A DNA stretch of 64,000 nucleotides from a virus (lineage: Duplodnaviria > Heunggongvirae > Uroviricota > Caudoviricetes > Crassvirales). The DNA lies in the IMG/VR virus record IMGVR_UViG_3300031952_000007, positions 14,504-78,503 of that record. One strand, written 5' to 3'. Position numbers and translations under genes: made by a program. Under the pieces are notes generated by a model, which was not told the origin of the DNA, searched no databases, and saw only the letters and a list, made by a program, of their open reading frames with translations. How positions within the stretch are numbered: the stretch's first letter is position 1; the number at the start of each line of letters is the position of its first letter. Shown in pieces: positions 227-19,047 of this stretch.

Positions 227-2500
227 TTAATTTTCTACTAATTCTTTAACAGTTTCTTCTGTTATTGCCATTGTGTTATATCTATCTAGATTTACTTTCT
301 GTTTGTGATATTTAAATAGATCACTCATTGCATCAAGAAATTCTTTAGATGGAGTGGTATATGCTGTAAATAATCCAAGCATAGTGTTTATGAACGGAAG
401 TCTTTCAAGAGTGCTCTTCACTTCTACATAAAAAGAATATATTTCTGGATCAAATAGATTTTGCTGTTCTGCTATTTCAATCATTGCTATATAAATAGCT
501 GACTCACCTCTAGTGTAATTATCATCAGCATATTTATCTAGTGTTTGTAACTTGTGATACAACTCTGAAGAAACATCTGATAATACATTCATTTTATCAA
601 ATGTTGATCTGTGCTTAGTTCTTAACTCAGCAATCAATTTACCAGTGACTATTCTTCTAAATGCTTTGTGTGTTCCGTCCATAAATTTATCTAATTTAAT
701 CCAATTGTGTACATTGATTTTTTCTAAGTTCTTAAGTTCTCTATCAGAAAACTGAACAAATCTAATTTTATCACTTTTTACAGTGGTGAACAAAAGATCC
801 ATTCTTTTAGCATCTTCTGATCCACCATAAACTGTAAGTTGTTTGGTTTTATGAAGATCCTCAAGATTATACACTTCACTCACCCATTTACAATTAGAAC
901 CAGAAACATCTCTTAACAACTTTGTAGCCTCTTTACCAATAATCTGTCCTTTCAATTTAACTCTTCTATCTTTAGATATGGAAACTTTAACTTTCTTTCT
1001 AGCATCAATAAAAGATTGAGGAACAACTAGTGCATCAAGATCTATCCATGTTTTTGTGTACATTTCTATAATAGCATGAAACTCCTTAATTGCAGCTCTC
1101 CACAAACTCTTGTTAATTTTCTCAAGTCCCAATAGAGTTACATAAGTGCTGTAATTAGATAGTCTTCTCAAACTACCAAGAGTGAAATTAGAAGATTTCT
1201 TCATAAATAATGTCTTCTTAGACCATCCCATAGGAGCTATACTCTTAGTGTATTCCTTCTTAGTTACAGGAACCCTATCAGTGTATTTGTATACAGAACT
1301 AACAGAATTATTATCCTGATACCTATCTATACTAGTTTCCCAACTACCTCTACATTCTTTGAACTTACCGTTCTCAATTTTAAAATTAACAGTGTATTCT
1401 CCCAAGATCCACTCTCTATTTCTATAGATTGTTTTCATATCAAGAATGTTAATTCCCTTAAGTTTTGGTTCTGTAAATTTAACTGTAGCATAATTATCTA
1501 TTTCTCCTGCATCAAATTTTACATCTCCAACAGTGACAAACTTCTTTTTATTAGCATAGAAGTTCATAACCGCCTGGATATCTTCTGTATCTTGAGAGAG
1601 TTCATTGTATTTATTTACAAAGAAATCAGCCACCTTTGCTATTTTATCAAGAATCAATGCTTTAGCCTCTTTGGTATATCTAATACTTTCCCTATTTGGT
1701 GTAGGAAACAATCCATCCATAAGACTAAATCTCAATGCTACAGGAAACTCTATTGTATCAATCCCAATCTTCTCGAAATCAATAGGATAGTAGACATTAT
1801 CAAGACAAAGATGTAATTTATCTGTACTAGATAATTCTGAATACTGAAAATGCTCACTTCTGAATATCTTAAATTTATTATCAACTTGACAATCAAAATA
1901 TACATTCTCGAAATAAGCAAGTTGCTCTGGTATCTTTGCATTAAAATAACTTCTATCAGAATAAGTTACAGGAACAATAACTTTAACACCATTCTCTTCA
2001 AGGGTGGTTTGTTGGTACAATAGATCAATGCTGTTTGTGTCTTCTCCTTCGTACATCATATACTTGCGTTCAACACCATCCTTACGACATACAAAATAGA
2101 AACTAGAACTATAAGCTAGAGGAGCTTTAAAGCCCAAGCCCATCATACCTAGTTCTGTGTTACTGTTACGCTTTGTACTCTTACCATACTTACTAATAAT
2201 ATTTCTAACATCATCTGCATCTAAGCCAATACCAAAATCCTCAACACTAAATTCATAATTGTCTTCTTTGTTAATACCAAATTTTACAACTATAGGTTTG
2301 TCAACCCCAGCTCTTCTATGACTATCAAGTGCATTAGATGCACATTCTCTGATAGTGGAGCCTATTGAATCTGAATAGAGATTCTTACTTAACATCTGCA
2401 TCAATATCTGAGCAGAATCTAAGTCTAATGACATTCCAATTGAATCTTGTGATGTTCCTTCCTCAAGGATGGTGGCTTCTGTTTGTTTTTCTAAAATCAT
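227..2500 (-). CDS. Hsp90/HtpG-like GHKL-family ATPase domain protein (757 aa)
   Basis: N-terminal Bergerat-fold motifs in Hsp90-like order and spacing: N-box ECASNALDS, G1 box DFGIGLD followed by ...NIISKYGKSTK, G2 box GMMGLGFKA. The remaining ~550 aa have no recognisable motifs. Confidence 0.6.
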   Translation of the reverse strand: MILEKQTEATILEEGTSQDSIGMSLDLDSAQILMQMLSKNLYSDSIGSTIRECASNALDSHRRAGVDKPIVVKFGINKEDNYEFSVEDFGIGLDADDVRNIISKYGKSTKRNSNTELGMMGLGFKAPLAYSSSFYFVCRKDGVERKYMMYEGEDTNSIDLLYQQTTLEENGVKVIVPVTYSDRSYFNAKIPEQLAYFENVYFDCQVDNKFKIFRSEHFQYSELSSTDKLHLCLDNVYYPIDFEKIGIDTIEFPVALRFSLMDGLFPTPNRESIRYTKEAKALILDKIAKVADFFVNKYNELSQDTEDIQAVMNFYANKKKFVTVGDVKFDAGEIDNYATVKFTEPKLKGINILDMKTIYRNREWILGEYTVNFKIENGKFKECRGSWETSIDRYQDNNSVSSVYKYTDRVPVTKKEYTKSIAPMGWSKKTLFMKKSSNFTLGSLRRLSNYSTYVTLLGLEKINKSLWRAAIKEFHAIIEMYTKTWIDLDALVVPQSFIDARKKVKVSISKDRRVKLKGQIIGKEATKLLRDVSGSNCKWVSEVYNLEDLHKTKQLTVYGGSEDAKRMDLLFTTVKSDKIRFVQFSDRELKNLEKINVHNWIKLDKFMDGTHKAFRRIVTGKLIAELRTKHRSTFDKMNVLSDVSSELYHKLQTLDKYADDNYTRGESAIYIAMIEIAEQQNLFDPEIYSFYVEVKSTLERLPFINTMLGLFTAYTTPSKEFLDAMSDLFKYHKQKVNLDRYNTMAITEETVKELVEN

Positions 2501-2505
2501 AATTT

Positions 2506-2853
2506 CTAGTTTTTCTTTATTAAAATAATTTGTCTGTGTTCTAAATCATAAAATCTTGTATGATTATGATCCTCTGGAGTAAATAGATAAACTGTTTCTT
2601 TGTACGTACGAGTTGCACCATTATATACGTATGTTACATTTTCTTCTTCTCTTCTTGTAGAACATTTTACAGCTTTATATATTGGTTGCTGTGTTCTCCA
2701 ATGTAATTTATCACCAGTGACTGGTTTCTTTATTACTCTCAAATATTTAAAATGAGATTGGCAGGAGATTAATATTTCATCTCCCACCTCCAAATCTTGA
2801 ATTTTTACTTCCTGCATAATTTTTAATTTTAGAATGGTAGTTTTTCTAACCAA
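2506..2853 (-). CDS. hypothetical protein
   Basis: 115-aa ORF, co-oriented, overlaps the UDG-like gene start by 25 nt. Confidence 0.4.
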   Translation of the reverse strand: MVRKTTILKLKIMQEVKIQDLEVGDEILISCQSHFKYLRVIKKPVTGDKLHWRTQQPIYKAVKCSTRREEENVTYVYNGATRTYKETVYLFTPEDHNHTRFYDLEHRQIILIKKN

Positions 2854-3545
2854 TCTATGTGAAAATTATTATTACCTTTTAAAATCTTGTTCACTTTACC
2901 AAATACACCCTCTGTATCCCATTCTGCACCTTTGTATGAAGCAGAAGCTGGATGACTTACAGCAAATGACCAACTCATTGGTTGTACATATTTCTGATAT
3001 TTAGCAGCATCTTTACCAAGAAAGATAATAGGAGCTCCTGTATATGCCAAAACTTCTTCTAATAGATATTTGGTAAATGGTTCCCAGAGATCAATATGTG
3101 AACCTGCTTTGTTTATTTCTGTTGTCAGTGCTGCATTAAGCATAAGTACACCTTGTGATGCCAAATAACTAACATTAGCACTCTTGAATGTTTCTAGAGA
3201 TAATCCTTCATACAATTCTCTTTCTATACCTCCATAAAATTGTTGTAATGATGGTTGTAATTCTCCTGTATTACTACAGCCCATTAACAATCCATCAGCT
3301 ACAGGTTCTCCATGCTTCATTGAGTGATAGGGGCACATACCCATAATAATCACTTTAACCTCATCTAGTGGTGTCGCTTTGAAACATTTATATACATTAC
3401 ATGAAAGAGGAGCAATTGTCTTGCCCCTCTTACTTTCATGCTTCAGAAATTTATAGATGTTATCACAAGCTTCACTCTCAATGAATGGCTGTATTTTATT
3501 ATGCCAGCTCTCATGAAACTGATCTTTAAACTTCTCAAAATCCAT
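2829..3545 (-). CDS. family-1 uracil-DNA glycosylase (UNG) homolog with non-canonical active-site residues
   Basis: Colinear with UNG over its whole length: VKVIIMGMCPYH vs VKVVILGQDPYH, GVLMLNAALT vs GVLLLNAVLT, IIFLGKDAAKY vs VFLLWGSYAQKK, VSHPASAS vs TAHPSPLS, FHIDW vs PIDW. Catalytic Gln-Asp is replaced by Met-Cys and the wedge Leu by Ala, while the Asn and His are kept. Confidence 0.75.
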   Translation of the reverse strand: MDFEKFKDQFHESWHNKIQPFIESEACDNIYKFLKHESKRGKTIAPLSCNVYKCFKATPLDEVKVIIMGMCPYHSMKHGEPVADGLLMGCSNTGELQPSLQQFYGGIERELYEGLSLETFKSANVSYLASQGVLMLNAALTTEINKAGSHIDLWEPFTKYLLEEVLAYTGAPIIFLGKDAAKYQKYVQPMSWSFAVSHPASASYKGAEWDTEGVFGKVNKILKGNNNFHIDWLEKLPF

Positions 3546-3546
3546 A

Positions 3547-4353
3547 TTACATTATATTTTCTTGATCAAAACTCATTTCTAATTGACTGAATCTTGATGG
3601 GTTAAAACTTATTTCTAACTCTTGTTGAGGAGAAACTAAAATACCACTCTCATTAACAAAGAATTTGTGTGCATCAATATGACTATTCATCCAGAATATA
3701 GGACTTGTATCCTTCATAGCATAGGTTGTATAGTTATACAGTTCCCATAAGCTATCTGGAGCATTGTAATCATGTGTAGGAGCTTGTAATTCTTTCTTAA
3801 CAACACTTAATTGATGAGAGTTAATAAGACCTTCTTCAATATACATTCTACCAATCAACTCTGCTCTAGTACGCTTAGTGATTTCAATCTGCTTCATTGC
3901 TTCTCTTTCACCTTGCATTCTTGTAAATGCATCACCAGCTTCTTTGATGTATTCAGAGATTGCATTAGGAGTAAATTCTTGAATACCACCCATATGCTTC
4001 TTCTTGAATGCTCCCATATCACCTGATACAGAACCATTTTGACAAATGAATATACGTGTACCAATAGCAAACTTCAATGTAAGTTTCTTATTGTAGCTAT
4101 TCTGCCAGCCAATCTGCAATTGCATTTCTTGATCAGCTACATTACCAATACTAAATCTACCATTAGCAATCTGTCCAGCATCACAAGCTGAATAAGTTTC
4201 TTTGTCTAATTTAAACCCAGCTTTCTCAATACCATTTAATGTAAGATCTATTAGCTGAGAATGGCTAATTGGTTTGTAGGTTCTTGTCTGTGTAGGAACT
4301 TCTGTTGATGTAAGTAATTCCTTAGTTGTGTTGTACGTTCTTTTTAAGTCCAT
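3547..4353 (-). CDS. hypothetical protein (268 aa)
   Basis: Long co-oriented ORF with a stop/start overlap with the next gene; no motif recognised. Confidence 0.5.
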   Translation of the reverse strand: MDLKRTYNTTKELLTSTEVPTQTRTYKPISHSQLIDLTLNGIEKAGFKLDKETYSACDAGQIANGRFSIGNVADQEMQLQIGWQNSYNKKLTLKFAIGTRIFICQNGSVSGDMGAFKKKHMGGIQEFTPNAISEYIKEAGDAFTRMQGEREAMKQIEITKRTRAELIGRMYIEEGLINSHQLSVVKKELQAPTHDYNAPDSLWELYNYTTYAMKDTSPIFWMNSHIDAHKFFVNESGILVSPQQELEISFNPSRFSQLEMSFDQENIM

Positions 4354-5351
4354 TAAATTAATTTTTTGTGTTTTAAATAATTTTCAATTGCATCCATTCC
4401 ATGAGCTTTTGCAAGATCAGCCCAATCTTTGATTCCTTCTATTAGATACTTACGGGGAACGTTAGCATAATCAAATTCAAATATCTTAGTTATTTGTTGT
4501 GAATTTGCAACACCTGTAACATCAGAATCAAAGCTTAAGATTTGTCTATTAGAGTTTGCTTTAATATAATCAACATTATCTTTAGAGAAGCAACCAATGC
4601 CTTCATTTTGAACTGCACAGGTACAAGGAAATAGCTTTTTGATCACCATATAATCCTTCTTACTCTTATTGATAAATGCTACATCACAATCTTTTATATC
4701 TGACATGCCATCCATTGTTGTGATGGGAACATTATTTGGTACCCATTTATTCTTCTTATCAGCAAATGGTCTGTAAATCTTCCAATGGCCATTGTAATAA
4801 TAACCAAATCTCAATTCATTTTCCTTTAATGCAAACAAACTCTTGTTCAAATATAGCTTCTTTATAGCATATACATTATTGTCTCTAAGATCTTGTATGT
4901 CTTGATGATAGGTATTCCAATAGGCAAGTTCTTCATTAGTAAACTTTCTTGTAATTGCTTGAATCAATGAATATCTCTTCTCTACGTTCTCTGGTTGTTT
5001 GTATTCAGCAATTATCTTCTTGTAATCCTTCTCACTACTATTTGTAAAACCCAACCCAAAATCCCTATCAATCATCTCCATAGCTTCTACAAAAGAAATA
5101 TTGTATAATAGCTGTACAAAATCAAAGCAACCACCTCTCTTGTTTGTGTCTGAGAAATCAATAAATGATATATAACCATTCTTATTACCTATAATGAAAG
5201 AAGGATTGTTTTCATTCCTGAATGGAGAATAAGTTATCCTATTCAGCTTCCAATCTTTATTAGGCATATACCATCTGAATATGTCATACTCACTAATCTT
5301 AGTGAGGATTTCTTCTGGTGAAAGTCTACATTTCTTTTTTCCTGCTATCAT
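4353..5351 (-). CDS. primase-like protein (TOPRIM-type) with degenerate CHC2 zinc-finger region
   Basis: Residues ~40-95 (ITYSPFRNENNPSFIIG...GGCFDFVQLL) are colinear with the DnaG CHC2 finger (CPFHxExTPSF...CFGCGxxGxxIDF) but lack the Zn ligands. C-terminal region has a TOPRIM-like E..G (AVQNEGIG) and DxD (ILSFDSDVTG). Confidence 0.45.
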   Translation of the reverse strand: MIAGKKKCRLSPEEILTKISEYDIFRWYMPNKDWKLNRITYSPFRNENNPSFIIGNKNGYISFIDFSDTNKRGGCFDFVQLLYNISFVEAMEMIDRDFGLGFTNSSEKDYKKIIAEYKQPENVEKRYSLIQAITRKFTNEELAYWNTYHQDIQDLRDNNVYAIKKLYLNKSLFALKENELRFGYYYNGHWKIYRPFADKKNKWVPNNVPITTMDGMSDIKDCDVAFINKSKKDYMVIKKLFPCTCAVQNEGIGCFSKDNVDYIKANSNRQILSFDSDVTGVANSQQITKIFEFDYANVPRKYLIEGIKDWADLAKAHGMDAIENYLKHKKLI

Positions 5352-5416
5352 AATTGCAAATATAAAAAATCCCCTACCAAATTAATGATAGGGGACTCAT
5401 TTATTTTTTCTCTGAA

Positions 5417-6286
5417 TTAGAAATCAGAACCATCTGTAGAAAATGTTTCATCAGATGCTACTAAATTATCTTCAGCGTTATAGTCTTTCAAGTCTTTCAG
5501 AATGTAAAACTCTTTACATCCATATTCACCTGTAATACCTTTAACAAACCTTTCTACACCTTTGAGATCTTTAGAAGTTTTGTTTTGGATTGACTTAAGA
5601 ACATTACTGTTACTGTAGTCAACCAATCTAAATTGCTTCAAGAAATAAGAAGGAAGAAAGTCTTTGTTATACACTCCCTGGTATTCTTTAATCTCATCAT
5701 CTTTTGTAACAGTTTTAATTGTTGCAAGAGCTATGAAAGTAACATCATAACCACCAGTGATTTGTTCTTTAAGATCTTTAGTGTTACCTTTCATCAACCT
5801 TTTCCAATCAAGTTCTAAAGTTGTTTCAGCATCACTGTAATCAAGACCACCTAACCATGTGCGTAAGAAGTTGTACAAATCATCTTCACCAACATGAGCT
5901 TCACGATAATCTCTTTTAGCAAACCATGTAGGTAGAGCTTCTTCATTCTCTGCCCAAGAACTTACACCAACATTATTGATGTATTGTTTCTTAGTAAGAT
6001 CTTTGTTCTTCCTAACCTTGTTCTCTAGATAGAAAGTCATCTTGAACTTATCTTTGTTCTTAACTTCTTCTAGCCAAATGTCTACACGAAGTTTTGCATC
6101 TCCTGTATCATTTGTTGTTAAATACTCAAGTGTCTTACTGTCTTCTTTCAACTCAATGTTTAGAAGATCTTTGTAATCTTCTGCATCAGGATTGATAGCA
6201 ATCACTCTGCTTTCAAACAATCCTACCTTTTTACTAAACTCAGGTAGTTGCTTACTTTCTCTTTTTTTACCTCCAATGTTACTCAT
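5417..6286 (-). CDS. hypothetical protein; possible ssDNA-binding protein
   Basis: 289-aa ORF ending in an acidic tail ...ASDETFSTDGSDF, reminiscent of SSB C-terminal acidic tails; otherwise no motif. Confidence 0.45.
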   Translation of the reverse strand: MSNIGGKKRESKQLPEFSKKVGLFESRVIAINPDAEDYKDLLNIELKEDSKTLEYLTTNDTGDAKLRVDIWLEEVKNKDKFKMTFYLENKVRKNKDLTKKQYINNVGVSSWAENEEALPTWFAKRDYREAHVGEDDLYNFLRTWLGGLDYSDAETTLELDWKRLMKGNTKDLKEQITGGYDVTFIALATIKTVTKDDEIKEYQGVYNKDFLPSYFLKQFRLVDYSNSNVLKSIQNKTSKDLKGVERFVKGITGEYGCKEFYILKDLKDYNAEDNLVASDETFSTDGSDF

Positions 6287-6306
6287 TGTTTTCTGTGTTT
6301 TAATTG

Positions 6307-6978
6307 TTAATTATAATATGCGTCAACTGTATCTACAACTAATTGTAAATTATTTGGAATTTTTACTTCTTCAAACATTCCTGAAGGACTCTTTGCTGGA
6401 AACTTTTTAAACCTGTTTGTTACAAAACTGTACGTACAAACACCATCCTTAGCTTCTTCTACAAATGTGTACAAACACACTGTAAGAAGTCCTTCTAAAA
6501 CAATCTGATTATCAATCAGCTTACCTGCTGTTTTAATCTTATATCCTACAATCTCTCCACCATCTTCAATAGTTTCAGGATGCGTAAAGTAGAACACTTT
6601 AATATCATCTCTAAGTTTACGAGCTTCTCTAAACACTCCCACAATATCTCTAGCCATAAGAGTAAATTTGGCATAACCAACCTCTGTAGCTTTAGCTATC
6701 ATGTTAAAACCCATGATGTAATTACTGTCCTCGATGATGATGTTCTTGATGTGAGGAGCATTCTTTGAAATCTTCTGAAGATGTAGAGCAATGTCAATAG
6801 CATCATCCATTTCTTTGTAATTCTTGTTCTCTTCATTATAGAGCTTTTCTGCTCCTTTGAAGGGAAGTTCTTTCTTTGCTACGTTAATAATATACGTAGT
6901 TTTTGGATCTAAATGCTTGATAGAGGTTGACTTACCTGTACCTGAAGCACCAACAATCCCAATTAATTTACTTGCCAT
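6307..6978 (-). CDS. P-loop NTPase (small Sak4/AAA_24-like recombination ATPase or nucleotide kinase)
   Basis: N-terminal Walker A IGIVGASGTGKST; Walker B-like hydrophobic stretch ending in D (IIIEDS); 223 aa. Confidence 0.55.
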   Translation of the reverse strand: MASKLIGIVGASGTGKSTSIKHLDPKTTYIINVAKKELPFKGAEKLYNEENKNYKEMDDAIDIALHLQKISKNAPHIKNIIIEDSNYIMGFNMIAKATEVGYAKFTLMARDIVGVFREARKLRDDIKVFYFTHPETIEDGGEIVGYKIKTAGKLIDNQIVLEGLLTVCLYTFVEEAKDGVCTYSFVTNRFKKFPAKSPSGMFEEVKIPNNLQLVVDTVDAYYN

Positions 6979-7000
6979 GTTTTAAATTTTAGTTTATTAT

Positions 7001-7213
7001 TTAATCCTTCGAAGATACAACAATTTTGTCAGATTTCAAAATTGTTGTCTTAGTATCCATAAGGTTTGGATCTTTAATAAGTTGCTCATAAAGATACTGC
7101 ACTTCATCAAGATTTTTACCAAAACTACTGTCAATCATCTTACCACCTATAGTGACATAATAATAAGCTGGCTCATTAAATTCTTCTCTTTTAACTAATT
7201 CAATTTTCTTCAT
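7001..7213 (-). CDS. hypothetical protein (70 aa)
   Basis: Small co-oriented ORF with a 4-nt overlap with the helicase exon. Confidence 0.4.
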   Translation of the reverse strand: MKKIELVKREEFNEPAYYYVTIGGKMIDSSFGKNLDEVQYLYEQLIKDPNLMDTKTTILKSDKIVVSSKD

Positions 7214-7983
7214 ACATACTTAATTTTTGATTGATTTAACATTGATAGACTCTCTACAATTTTCTTTAGTTCTGGTTTCTCATTCAAACATAAAATGTGC
7301 AAGTCAGCAATCTTTCCATGATAGTCTAATTTAATAGCTCTATTTAGGATTTGAGAACTCTCTTCAGCATTATATGTAAAGTTGGTGAGGATTACAGAAT
7401 CAAGATCTGGATAGGTTACACCAATCTTTCCCATTGCTGCTAATGCAAGATGATTTATCTCTCCATTCTTGAAGTCTTGAAAATTACCATCATTCTTAGA
7501 CTTACTATGATAGGAAGGACAACCAACCTCATCAGCAACCTTTGCAAGACCTGTGAACACTAACACTCGTTTATCTGACAAATCGTTTAGAAGAGCCTTT
7601 AAATAGCTCATTTTGGCAATTGATGATTGAGAGAGTCTGTTTCTAGCTAATGCTAAATGCATAAAGTTTCTACCTTCTCTTTTCAACTTTTCAATCACCC
7701 AAGAATAACCATCATATTTCTGTTTCTCTGTCTTTTCTTTACCATTCTTGTCTATTGTAACTTTCTTTGTGTCTAGATTGATAAGATGTACAGAGATTTG
7801 ATAGTCTGCTAATATACCATCCTCAATTCCTTGATCTGTGGTGTAGCTTCCTATCTCTTTAATCTCTTCCCATTGCTCAATAGTTTCTGATGATACAGTT
7901 CCTGATAGACACAATGTGTACGTACAATTATCAATTATCTCTTTACACAATTCTCTTTCATTCTCACTTGCACTGTGGAATTC
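7210..7983 (-). CDS. SF2 helicase, 3' exon (helicase C-terminal domain)
   Basis: Frame is open upstream of the annotated TTG 'start' (7950) back to 7983, giving EFHSASENERE-LCKEIID... Carries helicase motifs III (LSGT), IV (VLVFTGL) and V/VI (ILTNFTYNAEESSQILNRAIKL). Joins exon 1 to restore the DExH box. Confidence 0.65.
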   Translation of the reverse strand, partial: EFHSASENERELCKEIIDNCTYTLCLSGTVSSETIEQWEEIKEIGSYTTDQGIEDGILADYQISVHLINLDTKKVTIDKNGKEKTEKQKYDGYSWVIEKLKREGRNFMHLALARNRLSQSSIAKMSYLKALLNDLSDKRVLVFTGLAKVADEVGCPSYHSKSKNDGNFQDFKNGEINHLALAAMGKIGVTYPDLDSVILTNFTYNAEESSQILNRAIKLDYHGKIADLHILCLNEKPELKKIVESLSMLNQSKIKYV

Positions 7984-9044
7984 CGTTTATGTTAACTTTT
8001 AGTTTCCTAAAAGACCAGACTATATCTTATTACTAAATTAAAATTTTTTGTCAGACCAATAATAACCTCCACATTTACCTTTTCTTTTAATAGCCTCAAA
8101 AATTCCTGATGGATATTTACAAGGATTTATTATATTAAAAGCTTCAGTAACAGAAGAAAAAACTTGTAATAAATTTTTATTGCAATCATACATATATACA
8201 ATTTTAGATTTATTTATATAACTCTTGTTATAATTATTAGATAAATAATCTTTTTCATATAAAATTATATGATTTCCTGCAGTTATATTTGTCATCTTTT
8301 TTGAAAGAACATTGCTAATACTAGTGATTTTAACATTAAGGTTTTTAGCACACTCCCCTATAGATGAGAAAGTGTTTATATAATCATAATTTAAAGATAA
8401 TACTACAACTTTTTTTTTATGACCATCCGAAGATCTTTGTAAACTATCTTTAGTGCGATCTACTATTAATCCTTTTCCACCTTCTCTAATATTAGTTAAA
8501 TTATTATAGTTATTTATCCAGTATTTTTCTTTTTCTTCCCAATTGTTTTTATCACATTCTTCAATTAATGTAATAATAGGATACAAGTTTTGTTTTTTAA
8601 GAGTTTTTATCCAATTACAAACATGAGTTTTTACATTTTTTGTAAAAGCTGCACATTTATGTTGACTTAATCTTTGAGACAACCTTGATACTGTAACACC
8701 AACATATCTAATTTCCTTTGTTATAGGATTAGATAAACTATAAATTTTATATGTTCTTTCCATAATAGTATTATAATGAATTTCACTACAATACTACATA
8801 AATTAATTTAATAATCCAAGCGTTTCATGTTAAATAATTATTAACATTACTCTACTCCCTTTATACAAAATATTGTATAGGTTTCGATAGTCGTTGAACC
8901 TTATTCCCATTAGGAATCTTGGCTGCTGATTGTCCAATTCTTATCTCTTTTACTATAATATAGTCATTACTGCTATATGGAGTGTATAAGACTCTAAGGA
9001 GTTTCCAGTCAATTAACTTGGTTTAAAGTGAACTTATATAATCA
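7984..9044 (-). mobile_element. group I intron (IA2-like) inside the SF2 helicase gene, carrying a GIY-YIG HEG
   Basis: Minus-strand core elements: P-like AAUUGACUGGAAACUCC (+8992..9017), Q AAUCAGCAGCCAAG (+8920..8938), R GUUCAACGACUA (+8888..8903), S AAGAUAUAGUCUGG (+8010..8030). P6 and P9 hairpins present. The internal guide sequence GUUCAC can pair with the exon end GUGGAU with a U.G wobble at the 5' splice site. The 3' end is a G in ...ACG|GAAUUC. Confidence 0.7.
8038..8763 (-). CDS. GIY-YIG homing endonuclease (intron-encoded)
   Basis: N-terminal YKIYSLSNPITKEIRYVGVT (GIY...YVG), then R..H, EKYWINNY and NIREGG motifs. Lies between R and S of intron 1 (P8 position). Confidence 0.8.
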   Translation of the reverse strand: MERTYKIYSLSNPITKEIRYVGVTVSRLSQRLSQHKCAAFTKNVKTHVCNWIKTLKKQNLYPIITLIEECDKNNWEEKEKYWINNYNNLTNIREGGKGLIVDRTKDSLQRSSDGHKKKVVVLSLNYDYINTFSSIGECAKNLNVKITSISNVLSKKMTNITAGNHIILYEKDYLSNNYNKSYINKSKIVYMYDCNKNLLQVFSSVTEAFNIINPCKYPSGIFEAIKRKGKCGGYYWSDKKF

Positions 9045-12102: not shown

Positions 12103-13083
12103 TTAAAACATGGAGATTTGATTTGGATTTACAACCACTTTTCTCTTCTTACCTTCTGTCTGAATCTTACTAACTATTGTATTACACTTCTCAATGTAAT
12201 ATTCATAATTGATATTATCCATAGGATGATCTTTAGTTAAGTGGTTACAAACTGTGCACATCCACTCACCAGCTTCCACTTGTGATATTGGTGGAGCATT
12301 AGTTACACAGCTATCGTTTTTTACTTTAAGAAGCTTCACTCCTTTATTTGATACATAATAACGAATGAGTTTATTATAGATAAACTTCTCACCTGTGCCT
12401 CTAACTATACCCTCATAATGGAAATCTCTCGAAGCTTTTTGTCTTAACGCAAAGTCATAGATGTTAGAATGATTCCTAACAGTATGCTCAATAGGTATAT
12501 TATTAACAAAATATTGTTCGAGAGCCAATGGTACAATCCTGGCTGATTTGTTTTTATGTAATTCAAAATCTGTGAGGAAATCCCCTTTCTTTTTAATTTC
12601 GCCATCTGTTTTAATTGCTAAGTAGTCATTAACTGTTGAGAATATAATCTTTTGATAGTCTGTTCTTTCCAATTCATAACTTGTCAGCTCTTGCCACCAA
12701 GTATTAATTGAATTCATTAGAGCTAAGTCTGTCTTTTTAACCATTATAGTTACACCATCTGTATTAGCAGATATAACATGAATATTATTAGTTTCATACT
12801 TCTCAATCAACATCATTAGACTCAACTCACCAGTGATACAAGTGAACATTGTAAGTTGCTTATCATAAATCCAGCTCTGCATGTCAGAACTCTTGCCATA
12901 AACACTGTTTACAGCTAATTTAAGAGCACCTACAATACCCTTGATCTTCTTATCCTTCTTAGCTAATGGTTTAAGCTCCAACCTCTTATCAAACATTTGC
13001 TTGTATCCATTAAGAAACTCTTTACCTAGATGTCCTGGATATTGCTCATTGTTAATGATGATGGCTGGATAGTATGCATCCCA
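12103..13083 (-). CDS. family-B DNA polymerase, 3' exon (polymerase motifs A-part, B, C)
   Basis: KLAVNSVYGK (Kx3NSxYG, motif B) and ISANTDGVTIM (DTD-type motif C). The annotated start is a TTG; the sequence WDAYYPAIII at the exon start completes motif A. Exon boundary is approximate (+/-7 nt). Confidence 0.7.
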   Translation of the reverse strand, partial: WDAYYPAIIINNEQYPGHLGKEFLNGYKQMFDKRLELKPLAKKDKKIKGIVGALKLAVNSVYGKSSDMQSWIYDKQLTMFTCITGELSLMMLIEKYETNNIHVISANTDGVTIMVKKTDLALMNSINTWWQELTSYELERTDYQKIIFSTVNDYLAIKTDGEIKKKGDFLTDFELHKNKSARIVPLALEQYFVNNIPIEHTVRNHSNIYDFALRQKASRDFHYEGIVRGTGEKFIYNKLIRYYVSNKGVKLLKVKNDSCVTNAPPISQVEAGEWMCTVCNHLTKDHPMDNINYEYYIEKCNTIVSKIQTEGKKRKVVVNPNQISMF

Positions 13084-14041
13084 GCCTCTGTAATCTTTCA
13101 ATTACAGCTGGACTATATCATCATTTAACTTTTAATTCTTTTTCCCAAATAAACCCATACATTGAAGGTTTGTTACCTGAACACACTGAATATATTTGTT
13201 GCCATTTATAAGAAGGATTTATTTCAGTTATTTCTTTTACTGAACCCCATTTTCTTATAAACTGTCTATCTTTTGTGTACTGATTGATATAATATTTAAC
13301 AGTTGCTTCTGAAACTTTTTTTGCCATTTCTTTAGTAGCCTCTGGATTATCTTTCCAATAAGTATGACTAACTTTTAGTCTTTCTTTTGGATCTTTATAT
13401 CTATTAATCTGAGCTTCACTGAGTTTTTTTCTTGTTTCTTTTGAAACAATGCAACTAGTTTCTGAATCTAATCTAATATTATATCCTTTGTCTCTATTAG
13501 TACATTTATAAACTCTTTGCCAATATAATTCTCGTTCCTTTAACTGGTCTAATTGTACAAATTCTATTACAAAATATTCAAAGTTTTCTCTTCCGTATTT
13601 ATGCCAAGCATTTATAAAATGGTCATTTTCATCTTTACTTCTTTTATTAAGAAGATTAATGTGTTGTCTGATTCTTCTATAAATACATTTAGCTTTTCCA
13701 ATATAAACTTTGCTATTTGTTTTATTTCTTATACAATATATTCCACTTTGGTCTAAATGTTCTTTTCTATTCAATTTCATGCTACAAATATATGTAATTA
13801 CATGGATAGAACCAAGACACTTATATTAATTAATTGTTAAATGTTCCCTGTTTAGTCTCTGAACCTTGATCTATTTCACTATAGACCCTTGGCTGCGGAT
13901 TGTCCAATCTTAATCTTTTTTACCATACCTGAGTAATTACTTCAGCCATTATATGTATTTCTACTATAACTTGGTAGATTAAGCTCTAAGGAGATCCCCG
14001 TCAATTTAAGGAATTTTAGTTACGCCATAGTATTAACGAAA
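13084..14041 (-). mobile_element. group I intron inside the DNA polymerase gene, carrying a GIY-YIG HEG
   Basis: Minus-strand P AAAUUGACGGGGAUCUCC (+13985..14010), Q AAUCCGCAGCCAAGGG, R GUUCAGAGACUA, S GAUGAUAUAGUCCAG (+13110..13123) and a P9 hairpin (+13088..13107). The heptamer TGGGATG occurs at both exon edges, so the exact splice point is ambiguous within 7 nt. Confidence 0.65.
13121..13780 (-). CDS. GIY-YIG homing endonuclease (intron-encoded)
   Basis: SGIYCIRNKTNSKVYIGKA (GIY...YIG), then R..H, FEYFVIE and ELYW motifs. The stop codon overlaps the S element of intron 2. Confidence 0.8.
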   Translation of the reverse strand: MKLNRKEHLDQSGIYCIRNKTNSKVYIGKAKCIYRRIRQHINLLNKRSKDENDHFINAWHKYGRENFEYFVIEFVQLDQLKERELYWQRVYKCTNRDKGYNIRLDSETSCIVSKETRKKLSEAQINRYKDPKERLKVSHTYWKDNPEATKEMAKKVSEATVKYYINQYTKDRQFIRKWGSVKEITEINPSYKWQQIYSVCSGNKPSMYGFIWEKELKVK

Positions 14042-15020
14042 CATCCCAATCAATGATTTCATACTCATCATCAGCATCAAATGTTTTAGGCTTGTTCTCT
14101 GTATGAAGACCACCTTTCATGAAAGAATACACATTATTATAAAAGTTTATGCTCTCTTTAAAATCATCCATCATCTTAAGCTTAACCTTCTTAATCTTTT
14201 TCAAGAAGTCTTTTAGCTGTGGAGTTTCAAACACTACATAATCAGCAATACAATGTCTAACGAAGATTTCCTTCCTGAACTTACCTTTTTTTGGTAATTG
14301 ACTGTATTTGATGTTCCTCTCTTGACAATAGAACTTCTTAATCATCTCATCACCAATCTTACTGTCAGAATAATTCAAACATGGAATATTAAACTCTTCT
14401 TGAATGTCCTGTCTAAGTTGTATCTGATTGTTTCCTTTGTATAAAGGATGTTCACAGTCACCAATAGTAATCTTGTAGAACTCATAAGTGGCCATAACAT
14501 CATTCCTACAATAGTCTTTAGTCATTTGAATTTCTTCATCTGTCATATCAACCTTTGTATGATGAATAGGCATCTCTTCAATGTTCTCAAGATCCATCTC
14601 AAACTCCAGTCTCTTTAGACTCACCATACGATTCTTATTATCGTAGTGGTTCACCTTGAATACATCAATTTGTTTAAGACTAAGATCAGCTTCTCTGTAT
14701 TTAGGCATTACATCATAATTAGCATCATGAATAACATCTCCTGCATTAACAGCAATCTTAGCACAAATATCAAGATAGCTTAAAGAACCCCATTCTTCAT
14801 AGCTTTTAAGGATGAATTCAATCACTTGACTGTCAAACCTAAGATTGTTATACCCAACCCAATAATGGTCCTTATAAGCCTCTGTGAACCTCACAAAGCT
14901 ATCAAGATTATTAGCAAGCTTACTCACTTCAAACTCAAAATATATGTCTGTTTTTACATCATAAACTCCTACAAGAAATAGTTCTTGCATAGTTTCTATG
15001 TCAAATATTAATACTTTCAT
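14042..15020 (-). CDS. family-B DNA polymerase, 5' exon (3'-5' exonuclease domain)
   Basis: Exo I LIFDIET, Exo II YNNLRFDSQVIEF, Exo III YCRNDVMATYEFY. Ends ...YEIIDW(D) at the intron; inferred spliced junction is ...EIIDWDAYYPAIII (motif A, DxxSLYPSII-like). Confidence 0.7.
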
Positions 15021-16488: not shown

Positions 16489-16507
16489 GTTTTTATATTT
16501 TAATTTT

Positions 16508-16551
16508 AACTTGGTCCCAACTTAGTCCCAACTTGGTGCCAACTTAGTGCT
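16508..16551. repeat. four tandem 11-bp direct repeats AACTT(G/A)GT(C/G)CC
   Basis: aacttggtccc / aacttagtccc / aacttggtgcc / aacttagtgc read directly in the sequence, in the intergenic region between 16488 and 16647. Confidence 0.8.
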
Positions 16552-16646
16552 TTATACTTCATAGTAAGAATGTAAGATTGAAACTAACTGGAAGTATAGA
16601 AAACCATACTAACACTTAAAGGCTTAAGTGAAAATATAACTGGTAA

Positions 16647-16847
16647 TTAGCTACTCAAATTGTCTTGTTTTGCTACTTTTAAAGAACAATCTTCACAATA
16701 TTGTGGATCTAGATGTCCATTACCTCTTGCAAAATTAGCTTCTTCATCTGTAAATTCAAACCCCACCTTAATTATCTTACTGCATTTTATGTTGGAGCAT
16801 AAAATTGCTAAATGTCCACTATTCCATTTCACTCTTGCTTTCTCCAT
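16647..16847 (-). CDS. small zinc-ribbon protein (66 aa)
   Basis: Two Cys pairs, CSNIKC and CEDC, in a 66-aa ORF. Confidence 0.45.
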   Translation of the reverse strand: MEKARVKWNSGHLAILCSNIKCSKIIKVGFEFTDEEANFARGNGHLDPQYCEDCSLKVAKQDNLSS

Positions 16848-16932
16848 AACTTATAAGTTTAAAATGTTAATTAATTAGTTAACCCAAAAGATAACAAAAA
16901 TGGGTTACATCTTTACGATATAACTTAAAATG

Positions 16933-17002
16933 CAGTTAGGATGTGAATCGAACACACTATCTCCCTTATGATCAGTTGCATTATCCAACATGCTCCCTAA
17001 CT
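16933..17002 (-). ncRNA. tRNA-like element (possible degenerate tRNA)
   Basis: Minus strand has a perfect 7-bp acceptor pairing (AGUUAGG / CCUAACU), a D-arm GCAU-GUUGGAUA-AUGC, and a canonical T-arm GUGUG-UUCGAUU-CACAU. No canonical anticodon stem could be built by eye. Confidence 0.2.
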
Positions 17003-17144
17003 ATATGCAACTAATACCCCTGTAGTTGCCACATGCTAACTTACGATTTAGCGAGATAAGTGTGCTTCGTAATCCTTTTTGATTAGCTATCTCAAGGCAA
17101 TTAGAGAGGCATTCTCTGTCTTTCGATCCTCTGGCCAATAGAGG

Positions 17145-17405
17145 CTAATTTATTCCAAATAGAAACTTAAAACATGATTTATAAATAAACCATTTACCTT
17201 TTAATGGTTTATCCCAATTGTAATTTCTATCTAGCTTATGATATGATGTTTCTAAGAAATCATCTTCCCATGCTTCTTTAGAAACAGCAAAATCTATAAA
17301 TGCCATTTCTAATATTACTTCATAATGGAAATAATATCCCAAAAACCATCCTTCAGCTTCATAAGGAGATTCAACAGTTGGTTTTTTTCTCCAATATATA
17401 ATCAT
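17145..17405 (-). CDS. hypothetical protein (86 aa)
   Basis: Co-oriented ORF, ATGA overlap with the upstream ORF. Confidence 0.45.
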   Translation of the reverse strand: MIIYWRKKPTVESPYEAEGWFLGYYFHYEVILEMAFIDFAVSKEAWEDDFLETSYHKLDRNYNWDKPLKGKWFIYKSCFKFLFGIN

Positions 17406-17680
17406 TTTGTTTCTTTTACAAATCTGAATGCAACAAGTCTATTGTTGTATTCAAATCTACGTTTATTAATAGGGTTTAAACTGTTCATCATCACTTCATA
17501 ACTAACCTTTACAGTTTTCATAGCTGAAGTGATAGATGGTAGGACAATCTCCTCTTTAGTATCTATAAAGATCATTCTGATCTCTCTAGAATTGTCATAA
17601 GTCACTTTGTTCATTGCTTCTAGTTTTAAATTAATAATGTGGAGGTGCAGGGAGTCGCATAATGTGGATATCTTAAACAA
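17402..17680 (-). CDS. hypothetical protein; probably the 3' exon of an intron-interrupted gene
   Basis: Annotated start is TTG. The frame stays open upstream to 17716, immediately after the S element of intron 3. Confidence 0.4.
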   Translation of the reverse strand: MFKISTLCDSLHLHIINLKLEAMNKVTYDNSREIRMIFIDTKEEIVLPSITSAMKTVKVSYEVMMNSLNPINKRRFEYNNRLVAFRFVKETK

Positions 17681-17716
17681 ACTTACAAAGAACCACTGCC
17701 CATGTTGCCATGAGGA

Positions 17717-17880
17717 TTAGACTATATCATCACCTGTTCTAGGTGCTGGACGCTTATTCCTGTTATTAAGAAGACTTTACTTCTCAGGTAGTCGTTGAAC
17801 CTTCTTAGAATGTATTCTAAGCTTGGCTGCTGATTGTCCTAACTTCACTGTTAGGAGTTCCAGCAATTCATCCAGTTTTT
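17717..17880 (-). mobile_element. group I intron core (third copy), no homing-endonuclease ORF
   Basis: Minus-strand P GAUGAAUUGCUGGAACUCC (+17854..17873), Q AAUCAGCAGCCAAGC (+17822..17839), P6 hairpin cuuagaaugcauucuaag, R GUUCAACGACUAC (+17789..17804), S GAUGAUAUAGUCUAAUC (+17720..17732). Elements are in the same order and near-identical in sequence to introns 1 and 2. Confidence 0.5.
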
Positions 17881-17966
17881 AATTAAGTATTCCTACTTAA
17901 TGGGTCCAATTCCCAAACCCTGGTCTTTTCAAGACCCAATAAATCCATTTTTACAAGCTTAGATCT

Positions 17967-17994
17967 TGTCACAATTATTTTAAAAATTGTGACA
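17967..17994. repeat. perfect 10-bp inverted repeat TGTCACAATT-n8-AATTGTGACA
   Basis: Read directly in the sequence; AT-only 8-bp spacer attttaaa; sits in the ~700-bp noncoding stretch between intron 3 and the terminator at 18346. Confidence 0.8.
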
Positions 17995-18345
17995 TAATCA
18001 GTAAGGGAAACTAACCAGTGGTATAAAAGCCACCAGCTCCACCATCTAGTTTATGAACTAGAAAACTAACTTTCTTTTTACACCATATAGTCTTAGGTGG
18101 TAGAATTCTCAAGATGTCTCAAGCTCTTACGATTGTAACTATTATGTTCCTTGGACAGTTACCATCCAGAGAACTACGCTGCTACAGCAACATTAGCAAA
18201 AGCCATGTTGATGATCATTGCACCTTCGTTCTGACGTACTAACTTAGAGTTGTCGTTTGATTGTTAATCAGTGTCTTTGAGTACTGACTGCCTCTTGCTT
18301 GTGAACCTACCTGATACATGAAAATCAAATGCCATACCACCCCCA

Positions 18346-18380
18346 TTTGAAAAAATATTTGCAGAGAATTTCTCCTCTGC
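18346..18380 (-). terminator. rho-independent terminator
   Basis: Minus strand: TTGCAGAG-gagaaatt-CTCTGCAA followed by atATTTTTTC, directly 3' of the stop at 18401. Confidence 0.6.
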
Positions 18381-18400
18381 AAATATAATCATTCTTGTTA

Positions 18401-18613
18401 TTACTTTCTAACAAATTTATGTCTAACAAAAATATTCTTAAATTCTCCTGATGGAGAATAATAATATCTGTTATTAGATATAACTATGCGTTCTTCTTTT
18501 GATGGAGCAAATATAGCTTCCATCAATTTCCTACAATTGTCATTAGGTGTATACACCTGAATGTGTTCCCTTGAGTGCATTCTTGATGAATACACTAATG
18601 TGTAATTTGCCAT
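18401..18613 (-). CDS. hypothetical protein (70 aa)
   Basis: Co-oriented ORF followed by a terminator. Confidence 0.45.
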   Translation of the reverse strand: MANYTLVYSSRMHSREHIQVYTPNDNCRKLMEAIFAPSKEERIVISNNRYYYSPSGEFKNIFVRHKFVRK

Positions 18614-18633
18614 TTGTGTGTGGTTTTTGATTG

Positions 18634-19047
18634 TTAGAAATATAATTTGATGTGATCGTTAAACATTTCTGCTTTTGTAGGCTTAAAATCAAATGAGAAA
18701 CCTTGTGGAAATGAAATAGATTCTTTCTTTACAATATCTATATCAACTCTTTTCTCAATGTTGTCCTTTGGGGCAACTCTATCACTTATTTTTACATAAC
18801 AAGAAGTTTTTTTAACAATCCAAACAATTTCATTATTGTCAATTATAACTTCATTATTCTTAATACTATACATTCTACTTCTAACATTGCTAAATGATCT
18901 ATTTAGTTTAGGAGCTAAATATTCTGCTGCTTTATATATGGTGCTAAATTTTTCCATACATGTAATTGCTGCTTTCATTTCTGATACTGTCCAAAATTTA
19001 AATGCTCTCATAATTTTTTTTTTAAAATGATTAGTTAATTTTTGCAA
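18634..19047 (-). CDS. hypothetical protein (137 aa)
   Basis: Co-oriented ORF. Confidence 0.5.
   Translation of the reverse strand: MQKLTNHFKKKIMRAFKFWTVSEMKAAITCMEKFSTIYKAAEYLAPKLNRSFSNVRSRMYSIKNNEVIIDNNEIVWIVKKTSCYVKISDRVAPKDNIEKRVDIDIVKKESISFPQGFSFDFKPTKAEMFNDHIKLYF

Follow-up and report, generated by a model that had tools for sequence, protein, structure and literature searches.

Evidence for a group I intron with its own homing endonuclease gene in motif A of a family-B-type DNA polymerase gene of a Crassvirales phage

In a 64,000-nucleotide (nt) stretch of a Crassvirales phage (positions 14,504 to 78,503 of IMG/VR record IMGVR_UViG_3300031952_000007; hereafter the window), the gene of a family-B-type DNA polymerase is very probably interrupted by a group I intron that contains a homing endonuclease gene (HEG). 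We put the probability of this reading at about 0.88. The interruption lies within a Ser codon of polymerase motif A (D-V-S-S|Y-Y-P). Such an element had been proposed before from the letters of the DNA and their reading frames (below, the sequence-only reading). That proposal was right in assuming a group I intron that has a GIY-YIG HEG of its own, as seen from two Rfam half-matches, the covariation among 15 copies and a match to Pfam PF01541. It was also right about motif A of a family-B-type polymerase as the interrupted site, as seen from homologues that are continuous across the site and from an alignment with family B polymerases (PolB). The splice junction and the intron subgroup are revised here.

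The window has a G+C content of 32%. At this locus three open reading frames (ORFs) follow each other on the minus strand, on which all features of the intron and its exons lie: 15020..14016 (334 amino acids, aa), 13780..13121 (219 aa) and 13101..12103. The first holds the exonuclease motifs FDIET, YNNLRFD and YCRND and the third the polymerase motifs KLAVNSVYGK and SANTDG (NTDG), so the earlier observation that the two domains are found on separate ORFs is correct. Exon 1 (15020..14036, 985 nt) carries the motifs of the 3'-5' exonuclease, encodes residues 1-328 and contributes the first base to the codon of Ser329; it ends in ...GAU GUU UCG U. The intron (14035..13077, 959 nt) begins with UAAUACUAUGGCG... 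and ends with ...GGCUGGGAUG, its terminal guanosine (omega-G) being position 13077. Exon 2 (13076..12103) starts with CA UAC UAU CCA..., read as (S)YYPAIII, and contains the 3' part of motif A, motif B (KLAVNSVYG) and motif C (SANTDG). When exon 1 is read through, it ends in ...DWDVSLILWRN at an in-frame UAA (14018..14016), six intron codons after the splice site.

Joining U14036 to C13076 keeps the frame and gives a coding sequence of 1959 nt for a protein of 652 aa, which reads ...IIDWDVSSYYPAIII... and has DWDVSSYYPAIII as its motif A string. At the RNA level the join is ...GAUGUUUCGU|CAUACUAUCC..., in longer stretches ...GAUGUUUCGUCAUACUAU... and ...GAUUGGGAUGUUUCGU|CAUACUAUCCAGCC.... We compared this product with the 120 best uninterrupted homologues (75-80% identity, 650-673 aa). 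The motif DWD[VA][ST]SYYPAIII is present without gaps in all 120, and in 113 of them DWDVSSYYPAIII is found letter for letter. Further, the DNA is continuous across the insertion point in seven intron-less viral loci.

Relatives of the intron were collected by a scan for relatives of the HEG and by a core-pattern scan of IMG/VR. This gave 14 further distinct copies in viral contigs, all at the same site of homologous polymerase genes. In all 15 copies exon 1 ends in U, P1 contains a U.G pair and the last base of the intron is G, and all 15 also share the sequence ...GUUUCGU| upstream of the 5' splice site. The terminal G is also seen in copies from distant hosts with a readable 3' junction (L014, L030, L037, L042, L045, L084 and L106), and in distant hosts where both junctions are readable the spliced product is always D-x-x-S-x-Y-P. 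The junction follows the canonical U/G splice rule and involves both the U.G pair of P1 and the helix P10. A cut after U14035, which would also form a U.G pair, was rejected because the intron would then end in C and the protein would read DWDVSLYYP, with a Leu that no homologue has. By megablast against 50,697 phage genomes no close relatives of the locus are found; the sole match is a 219-nt piece of the HEG, at 76% identity, in FpV phages, which infect Flavobacterium psychrophilum.

The sequence-only reading had placed the junction elsewhere. It joined the exons across one copy of a duplicated heptamer, TGGGATG, to give DWDAYYPAIII, with splice boundaries that would be non-canonical or undeterminable. 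The two copies do exist: one (14048..14042) codes for W-D-V in exon 1 and precedes the 5' splice site by 6 nt, and the other (13083..13077) is in the 11-nt intron tail after P9. Such a join is also in frame, from an RNA that would read ...GAUUGGGAUGCAUAC... (...GAUUGGGAUG|CAUAC...), and yields a motif-A-like string in a protein of 650 aa, a length that some homologues have. However, the 650-aa homologues differ in length elsewhere, and the two residues that this junction drops are missing in none of the 120. The 5' site is in fact 6 nt further downstream, where the U/G rule that the heptamer join breaks is satisfied with P1 and P10. It had been stated that no cut within the heptamer gives both the U and the G; the arithmetic is right, but the real cuts are outside the heptamer. 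It had also been held that the exact boundaries need experiment, whereas U14036 and G13077 satisfy the rule with pairing in P1 and P10. We consider a join across the heptamer hardly credible.

The heptamer itself neither marks nor masks a junction. Its 5' site reads TGGGA[TC]G in most intron-less homologues. In the 14 relatives the 3' copy shows no conservation: the tails of the other introns read GGCAGGAAUG, GGCUGGAAUG, GGUUAAG, AUUAAG or GGGUAAG, and in most the heptamer is varied or absent. In random pairs of windows of 30, 40 and 60 nt drawn from this same DNA, a shared 7-mer is found in 6%, 12% and 27% of the cases, respectively, and a shared heptamer near two sites is thus not beyond chance. 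Since its 3' copy is not kept among the relatives, we also rejected the heptamer as a scar of homing or duplication. Another shared 7-mer, ATACTAT, is found at 14031-14025 (P1 loop and guide) and at 13075-13069 (start of exon 2), both on the minus strand. It overlaps the near-palindromic P10 pairing (CAUA/UAUG) and is probably a by-product of that pairing.

We take the RNA to be a genuine group I intron. Rfam Intron_gpI matches it in two parts, 14016..13843 (39.9 bits, E 2.5e-8), which spans P3-P6, R and P3', and 13235..13089 (23.6 bits, E 0.0019), which spans P8', S/P7' and P9; both come from a search of a short stretch in E-value mode. Two introns without an ORF, located at this very site in distant polymerases, score above the Rfam gathering score (L037 with 93.7 bits and L084 with 79.7 bits). 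We wrote out the structure from the window sequence and examined it in an alignment of the 15 distinct copies. In the 78 proposed pairs 98.8% of the cells are paired, compared with 30-40% in slid controls. In 21 of the 78 pairs there are changes on both sides, a number reached by none of 500 shuffles. P4, P6 and P7 are invariant across the 15 copies, that is, intact and uninformative for covariation. The whole group I core is present: P3-P4-P5-P6, P7-P8-P9, the P3/P7 pseudoknot and a bulged base in P7. The anatomy of the intron, its junction, its conservation and its covariation are what we observe directly.

The P1 hairpin (14042..14019) is formed by GUUUCGU of the exon with UA of the intron (14042..14034), which pair with UGGCGUAAC (14027..14019); 97.8% of its cells are paired, and the U14036.G wobble at the 5' splice site is found in 15 of 15 copies. 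P1 is perfect (GUUUCGU/GCGAAAC) in 12 of the 15. In distant hosts the P1 guide is retuned to the exon: AUUGUGU/GCACAAU in L084, AUUGCGU/GCGCAAU in L014, GUUGGAU/GUCCAAC in L045 and GUUUCCU/GGGAAAC in L030. P10 pairs UAUG of the P1 loop with CAUA of exon 2. Its 4-bp core is invariant in the close family, and in distant hosts it tracks exon 2, with CAAUGU/ACAUUG in L030 and CGAUGU/ACAUCG in L037.

The 5' core helices (14013..13863) contain many compensatory pairs. The 5' strand of P3 (14013..14009) pairs with 13848..13844, with a double change from U-A to C-G in two sequences. P4 (14003..13997 with 13899..13894), P5 (13992..13990 with 13905..13903) and P6/P6a (13893..13863) are taken from the structure counts and the Rfam alignment. 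A P5abc-like three-way domain of 75 nt (13983..13909) has a GAAA loop and an A-rich stretch, GGUAUGGUAAAAAAG. The sequence-only reading had pointed to P, Q, R and S elements, and these conserved core sequences are present; R is GUUCAGAGACUA at 13864..13853 and includes the 5' strand of P7 (13859..13853) with its bulged A. The 3' strand of P3 (13848..13844) follows 4 nt (AACA) after it. P8 is formed by CAUUUAAC (13843..13836) and GUUAAAUG (13129..13122), is 100% paired and has two pairs with double changes. Next come J8/7 and the 3' strand of P7, UAGUCC (13115..13110), in the S element region (13129..13110). The P9 hairpin, CUGUAAUU-GAAA-GAUUACAG (13107..13088), has three pairs with double changes. 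It is followed by the 3' tail, AGGCUGGGAUG, 11 nt up to omega-G 13077, which varies among relatives.

The host protein is a divergent, compact family-B-type enzyme. The spliced protein is matched by PHROG 1252 'DNA polymerase' (E 5.9e-138). A single-sequence phmmer search against the PDB gives only an E-value of 0.15, to Pol alpha. A profile of 24 homologues finds archaeal PolB chains in the PDB (named KOD, 9N and Tgo by the depositors; E 5.7e-4) with motifs A to C aligned. Here DWDVSSYYPAIII is aligned to YLDFRSLYPSIII of archaeal PolB, that is, D-V-S-S-Y-Y-P-A-I-I to D-F-R-S-L-Y-P-S-I-I. Because this alignment places the second D of DWD at the position of the catalytic Asp of motif A, that residue, and not the first D as had been implied, is the predicted catalytic one. 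The spliced motifs DVSSYYPAII (A), KLAVNSVYG (B) and SANTDG (C), together with the exonuclease motifs FDIET, YNNLRFD and YCRND, form the family B set. As a proxy for the structure we used an AlphaFold2 model of P0007, a homologue with 79% identity. The top 50 Foldseek matches listed for it in the PDB are all family B polymerases, the best with an E-value of 2.7e-14 and a template modelling (TM) score of about 0.5.

Several observations weigh against the reading put forward here. Both Rfam half-matches of the window intron fall below 50 bits, the gathering score of RF00028, because the 660 nt of the ORF in the P8 loop break the model in two. A gathering scan of the whole window does not find this intron, only another one at 17972..17698. 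A U-U mismatch at position -4 of P1, which the window copy shares with two other distinct ones, could make splicing less efficient, and covariation in P10 is not significant within the close family. The minimum free energy fold of a construct from which the ORF was deleted recovers 47 of the 72 nested pairs (z = -3.0, mononucleotide shuffle). As for the polymerase, the Pfam families DNA_pol_B and DNA_pol_B_exo are not matched, the spliced protein being without any Pfam family at E <= 0.01, and the P0007 model is of moderate confidence (predicted local distance difference test, pLDDT, 71).

The mismatch in P1 bears on the question of whether the intron still splices. If it does not, the exonuclease and polymerase halves would be two polypeptides of a split polymerase, as in the annotation of phage FpV1 in public records, and gene callers and GenBank records do list the pieces as separate genes. 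However, exon 2 has no conserved start, and its only in-frame start, the TTG at 13101, is inside P9. The break is in the middle of motif A and inside a codon. Further, the whole ribozyme core is kept, with compensatory changes, in 15 copies, which is unexpected for a dead intron, and the two other distinct copies with the P1 mismatch have a full-length HEG (218 aa). A split polymerase therefore appears quite improbable to us, and a polymerase gene interrupted by a functional intron remains the preferred reading.

The HEG (13780..13121; 219 aa and a stop) is in the P8 loop. Pfam PF01541 matches it with 41.4 bits (E 1.8e-10; cut-off 22.6), and PHROG homing endonuclease families match it with an E-value of 4e-25. 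The motif residues are readable: GIY (13-15), YIG (26-28), Arg35/36, Glu83 and Asn101. Pfam gives no match in the C-terminal half. The stop codon of the HEG, UGA at 13123..13121, takes its first two bases from the end of the P8 3' strand and its third from the start of J8/7, where UGAUAUAGUCC follows at once; it is thus within the S element region, as the sequence-only reading had noticed. The ratio of non-synonymous to synonymous substitution rates (dN/dS) is 0.15-0.29 in comparison with 11 relatives.

Some further observations concern the HEG. The exact 219-aa protein is also found on contigs of several metagenomes, L145-L148 (ENA ERZ27247916 and ERZ27247700; JGI 3300032053 and 3300031746), and the automatic gene calls there list three genes as unrelated, namely one for the 334-aa product of exon 1, the HEG and one for the rest. 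The motif TATATTTG is located 5 nt before the ATG of the HEG, with cTTG 20 nt further upstream (13781-13820, minus strand), and both are kept in most copies. We take this pair to resemble the promoter consensus of Bacteroidota (TTTG ... TAnnTTTG), which would fit an independent, nearly leaderless expression of the HEG and a Bacteroidota host. In two relatives the HEG is truncated, to 119 aa (L141) and 162 aa (L082) versus about 219 aa, with the ribozyme core kept. This looks like decay of the HEG within an otherwise intact intron.

Sequence identity was calculated separately for the parts of the locus. The ribozyme core is 90-95% identical to the window copy at the nucleotide level in 11 of the 14 other copies and 73-85% in the remaining three. 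For the HEG the corresponding values are 82-86% and 60-82%. Outside a margin of 60 nt around the site, the polymerase exons are mostly 66-78% identical in their nucleotides, with one exon 2 comparison at 54%. Intron and HEG are more similar between the copies than the exons. In addition, intron-plus and intron-minus alleles both exist, as do ORF-less versions of the intron. Truncated HEGs and ORF-less versions would together represent the usual life cycle of a homing intron.

From what is known of this family of elements we infer splicing, endonuclease activity and homing. The transcript would fold into the group I core, with P1, P3-P9 and the P3/P7 pseudoknot, and the P7 helix with its bulged A would form the guanosine site. 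An external guanosine would then attack after U14036, held by the U.G wobble in P1, and the freed exon 1 would attack after the terminal G13077, with P10 (CAUA with UAUG) aligning exon 2. Joining of the exons, ...GAUGUUUCGU-CAUACUAUCC..., would restore a single reading frame, and on unspliced RNA the in-frame UAA six codons into the intron would halt the ribosomes. The GIY-YIG endonuclease would cut intron-less polymerase alleles in co-infecting related phages, and repair would copy the intron in, that is, homing.

With regard to subgroup, the intron is not of type IA2. The sequence-only reading leaned towards IA2, which does not agree with the structure: P7.1 and P7.2 are absent, since merely 4 nt (AACA) separate the 5' strand of P7 from P3', P2 is absent, with only UAAAA between P1 and P3, and there is a large P5abc-like domain. 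IA2 is the subgroup traditionally tied to phages (PMC11878797). In the window intron the P5abc-like domain is found within a phage protein-coding gene and the ORF is in P8, both of which distinguish it from the large subunit (LSU) ribosomal intron of Tetrahymena (IC1). It also lacks the P2/P2.1 and P9.1/P9.2 of that intron. Nevertheless, we presume a similarity to the P5abc of Tetrahymena, as a lead only, in the three-way arrangement of P5a, P5b and P5c with a GAAA loop on P5b. The A-rich stretch GGUAUGGUAA(A/U)AAG belongs to the same presumed likeness, and we take R (GUUCA.AGACUAAA) and S (AAGAUAUAGUC) to be nearly the same in both.

The architecture also bears on whether the RNA is self-splicing. 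In vivo, numerous group I introns depend on protein cofactors. Here P1 is weakened in the window copy and there are neither P2 nor P9 extensions, as would be expected if splicing required a protein factor of the host, of the phage, or the HEG product acting as a maturase. On the other hand, the full P5abc-like stabilising domain and the GNRA loops in P5b and P9 are features of a self-sufficient ribozyme. ORF-less relatives are found at the same site, and therefore the HEG is no required maturase for the family. We give an obligatory protein factor a small chance, and hold to an intron with the features of a self-splicing ribozyme.

Several introns in phage DNA polymerase genes are available for comparison. 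The polymerases of SPO1, Bastille, T7-like phages and Pf-WMP3 belong to family A (Pol I-like), and their introns are typically of type IA2 and encode HNH enzymes; I-HmuI is of the HNH type and a nicking endonuclease. The T4 td intron (IA2) is in the thymidylate synthase gene, and its I-TevI, a GIY-YIG homing endonuclease, is encoded in a peripheral loop. As in td, the end of the ORF abuts a core pairing in the window intron, and translation past the 5' splice site would soon meet an in-frame stop. In contrast, the host gene is different, and the window HEG is similar to I-TevI at the domain level only. Polymerase introns with a HEG are known from SPO1 and SP82 (I-HmuI), Bastille (I-BasI), T7-like phages and cyanophage Pf-WMP3 (I-PfoP3I) (PMC3984707, PMC3428280, PMC11878797). 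The Pf-WMP3 intron is IA2 and its endonuclease a nicking HNH enzyme (PMC3428280), and I-BasI is described as a nicking endonuclease in the title of a paper cited in PMC3984707. The window intron resembles those of SPO1, Bastille, the T7-like phages and Pf-WMP3 in being a group I intron with an internal HEG in a conserved catalytic region of an essential phage polymerase, and in having intron-plus and intron-minus alleles among its relatives. It differs from them in its family-B-type host, its GIY-YIG HEG, the lack of P7.1/P7.2 and P2, and the P5abc-like domain.

The closest relatives in the databases are the cultured Flavobacterium psychrophilum phages FpV1, FpV2 and FpV20 (Fipvunavirus; NC_031914). 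Their polymerase (25-29% identity) is likewise split at motif A, into gp70 and gp68 with the HEG gp69, and this GIY-YIG HEG is related to that of the window (76% nucleotide identity over 219 nt). In FpV1 (L144, NC_031914 76388-82606; locus 2530-3433, minus strand) Rfam matches one half of a group I intron on either side of the HEG, with 45.8 and 31.3 bits; these matches are from a scan of 1 kb, and an E-value scan of 6 kb gave nothing. The FpV insertion is read as 5 nt upstream of the window site (P1 GAUGU/GCAUC, GAUGU|U, DIDV|AGYYPSM). It has a long, IA-like insert between P7 and P3', unlike the window intron. The FpV records list two polymerase coding sequences and no intron, and the FpV1 polymerase intron thus appears to be unannotated. 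In a literature search we found no published description of the window intron or of an FpV polymerase intron.

The window contains one other group I intron, at 17972..17698 on the minus strand (Rfam 96 bits), so that the motif A intron is indeed the second of the window, as had been proposed. This other intron is ORF-less and has an insert between P7 and P3'. No coding exons are seen beside it (flanks 17380-18640): all three upstream frames (18400..17973) contain stops, the next ORF downstream begins about 18-85 nt after the intron, and no tRNA is predicted in 16500..19000.

Further insertions are found in relatives that have the motif A intron. In L128, L129, L136, L137, L078 and L083 there is a second insertion in motif B (KLAVNSVYG|KSSDMQ, residue 389/390), of about 285 nt in L128 and L129 (L128 4854-5139) and about 1.1 kb in L136 and L137. 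The insert of 285 nt is preceded by a U, has G as its last base and matches no Rfam family at E <= 1. In L130, L134, L142 and L050 polymerase residues 329-652 are spread over 1140 nt in the tblastn match, compared with about 972 nt. This points to one more insertion in exon 2, in frame and about 170 nt long, or to an additional domain there. The viral contig L029 (IMGVR_UViG_3300034096_001425) matches the group I core pattern (AATCCGCAGCCAAG...AAGGTTCAGAGACTAAA) at five separate places over about 7 kb (1588-8163), and several giant-virus (GVMAG) contigs also match this pattern.

It is conceivable, although we regard it as doubtful, that these introns form a widespread, undescribed phage lineage: non-IA2, with a Tetrahymena-like P5abc and no P2, at one exact site (phase 1, in the Ser codon of DxxS|xYP) of family-B-type polymerases that are 21-30% identical, in many uncultured aquatic phages probably infecting Bacteroidota. 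If so, and with the other introns located nearby, at a distance of 5 nt and in motif B, the polymerase would be a multi-intron hot spot. The endonucleases of the lineage might then act as weapons between co-infecting phages, as has been reported for the intron HEG of phage PhiPA3 (PMC11620839).

In general, the element is real but ordinary: a HEG-bearing intron in a phage polymerase is a type that is already well known, and current views are left unchallenged. What is gained first is correct annotation, as the junction allows the 652-aa enzyme to be rebuilt both for this phage and for dozens of related contigs from metagenomes. Further, a family-B-type host and a non-IA2 ribozyme architecture join the list of phage polymerase introns. 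Finally, the relatives form a natural data set on the retargeting of HEGs, in which the same site is occupied in polymerases that are 21-80% identical, with and without a HEG, and with P1 and P10 retuned to each host.

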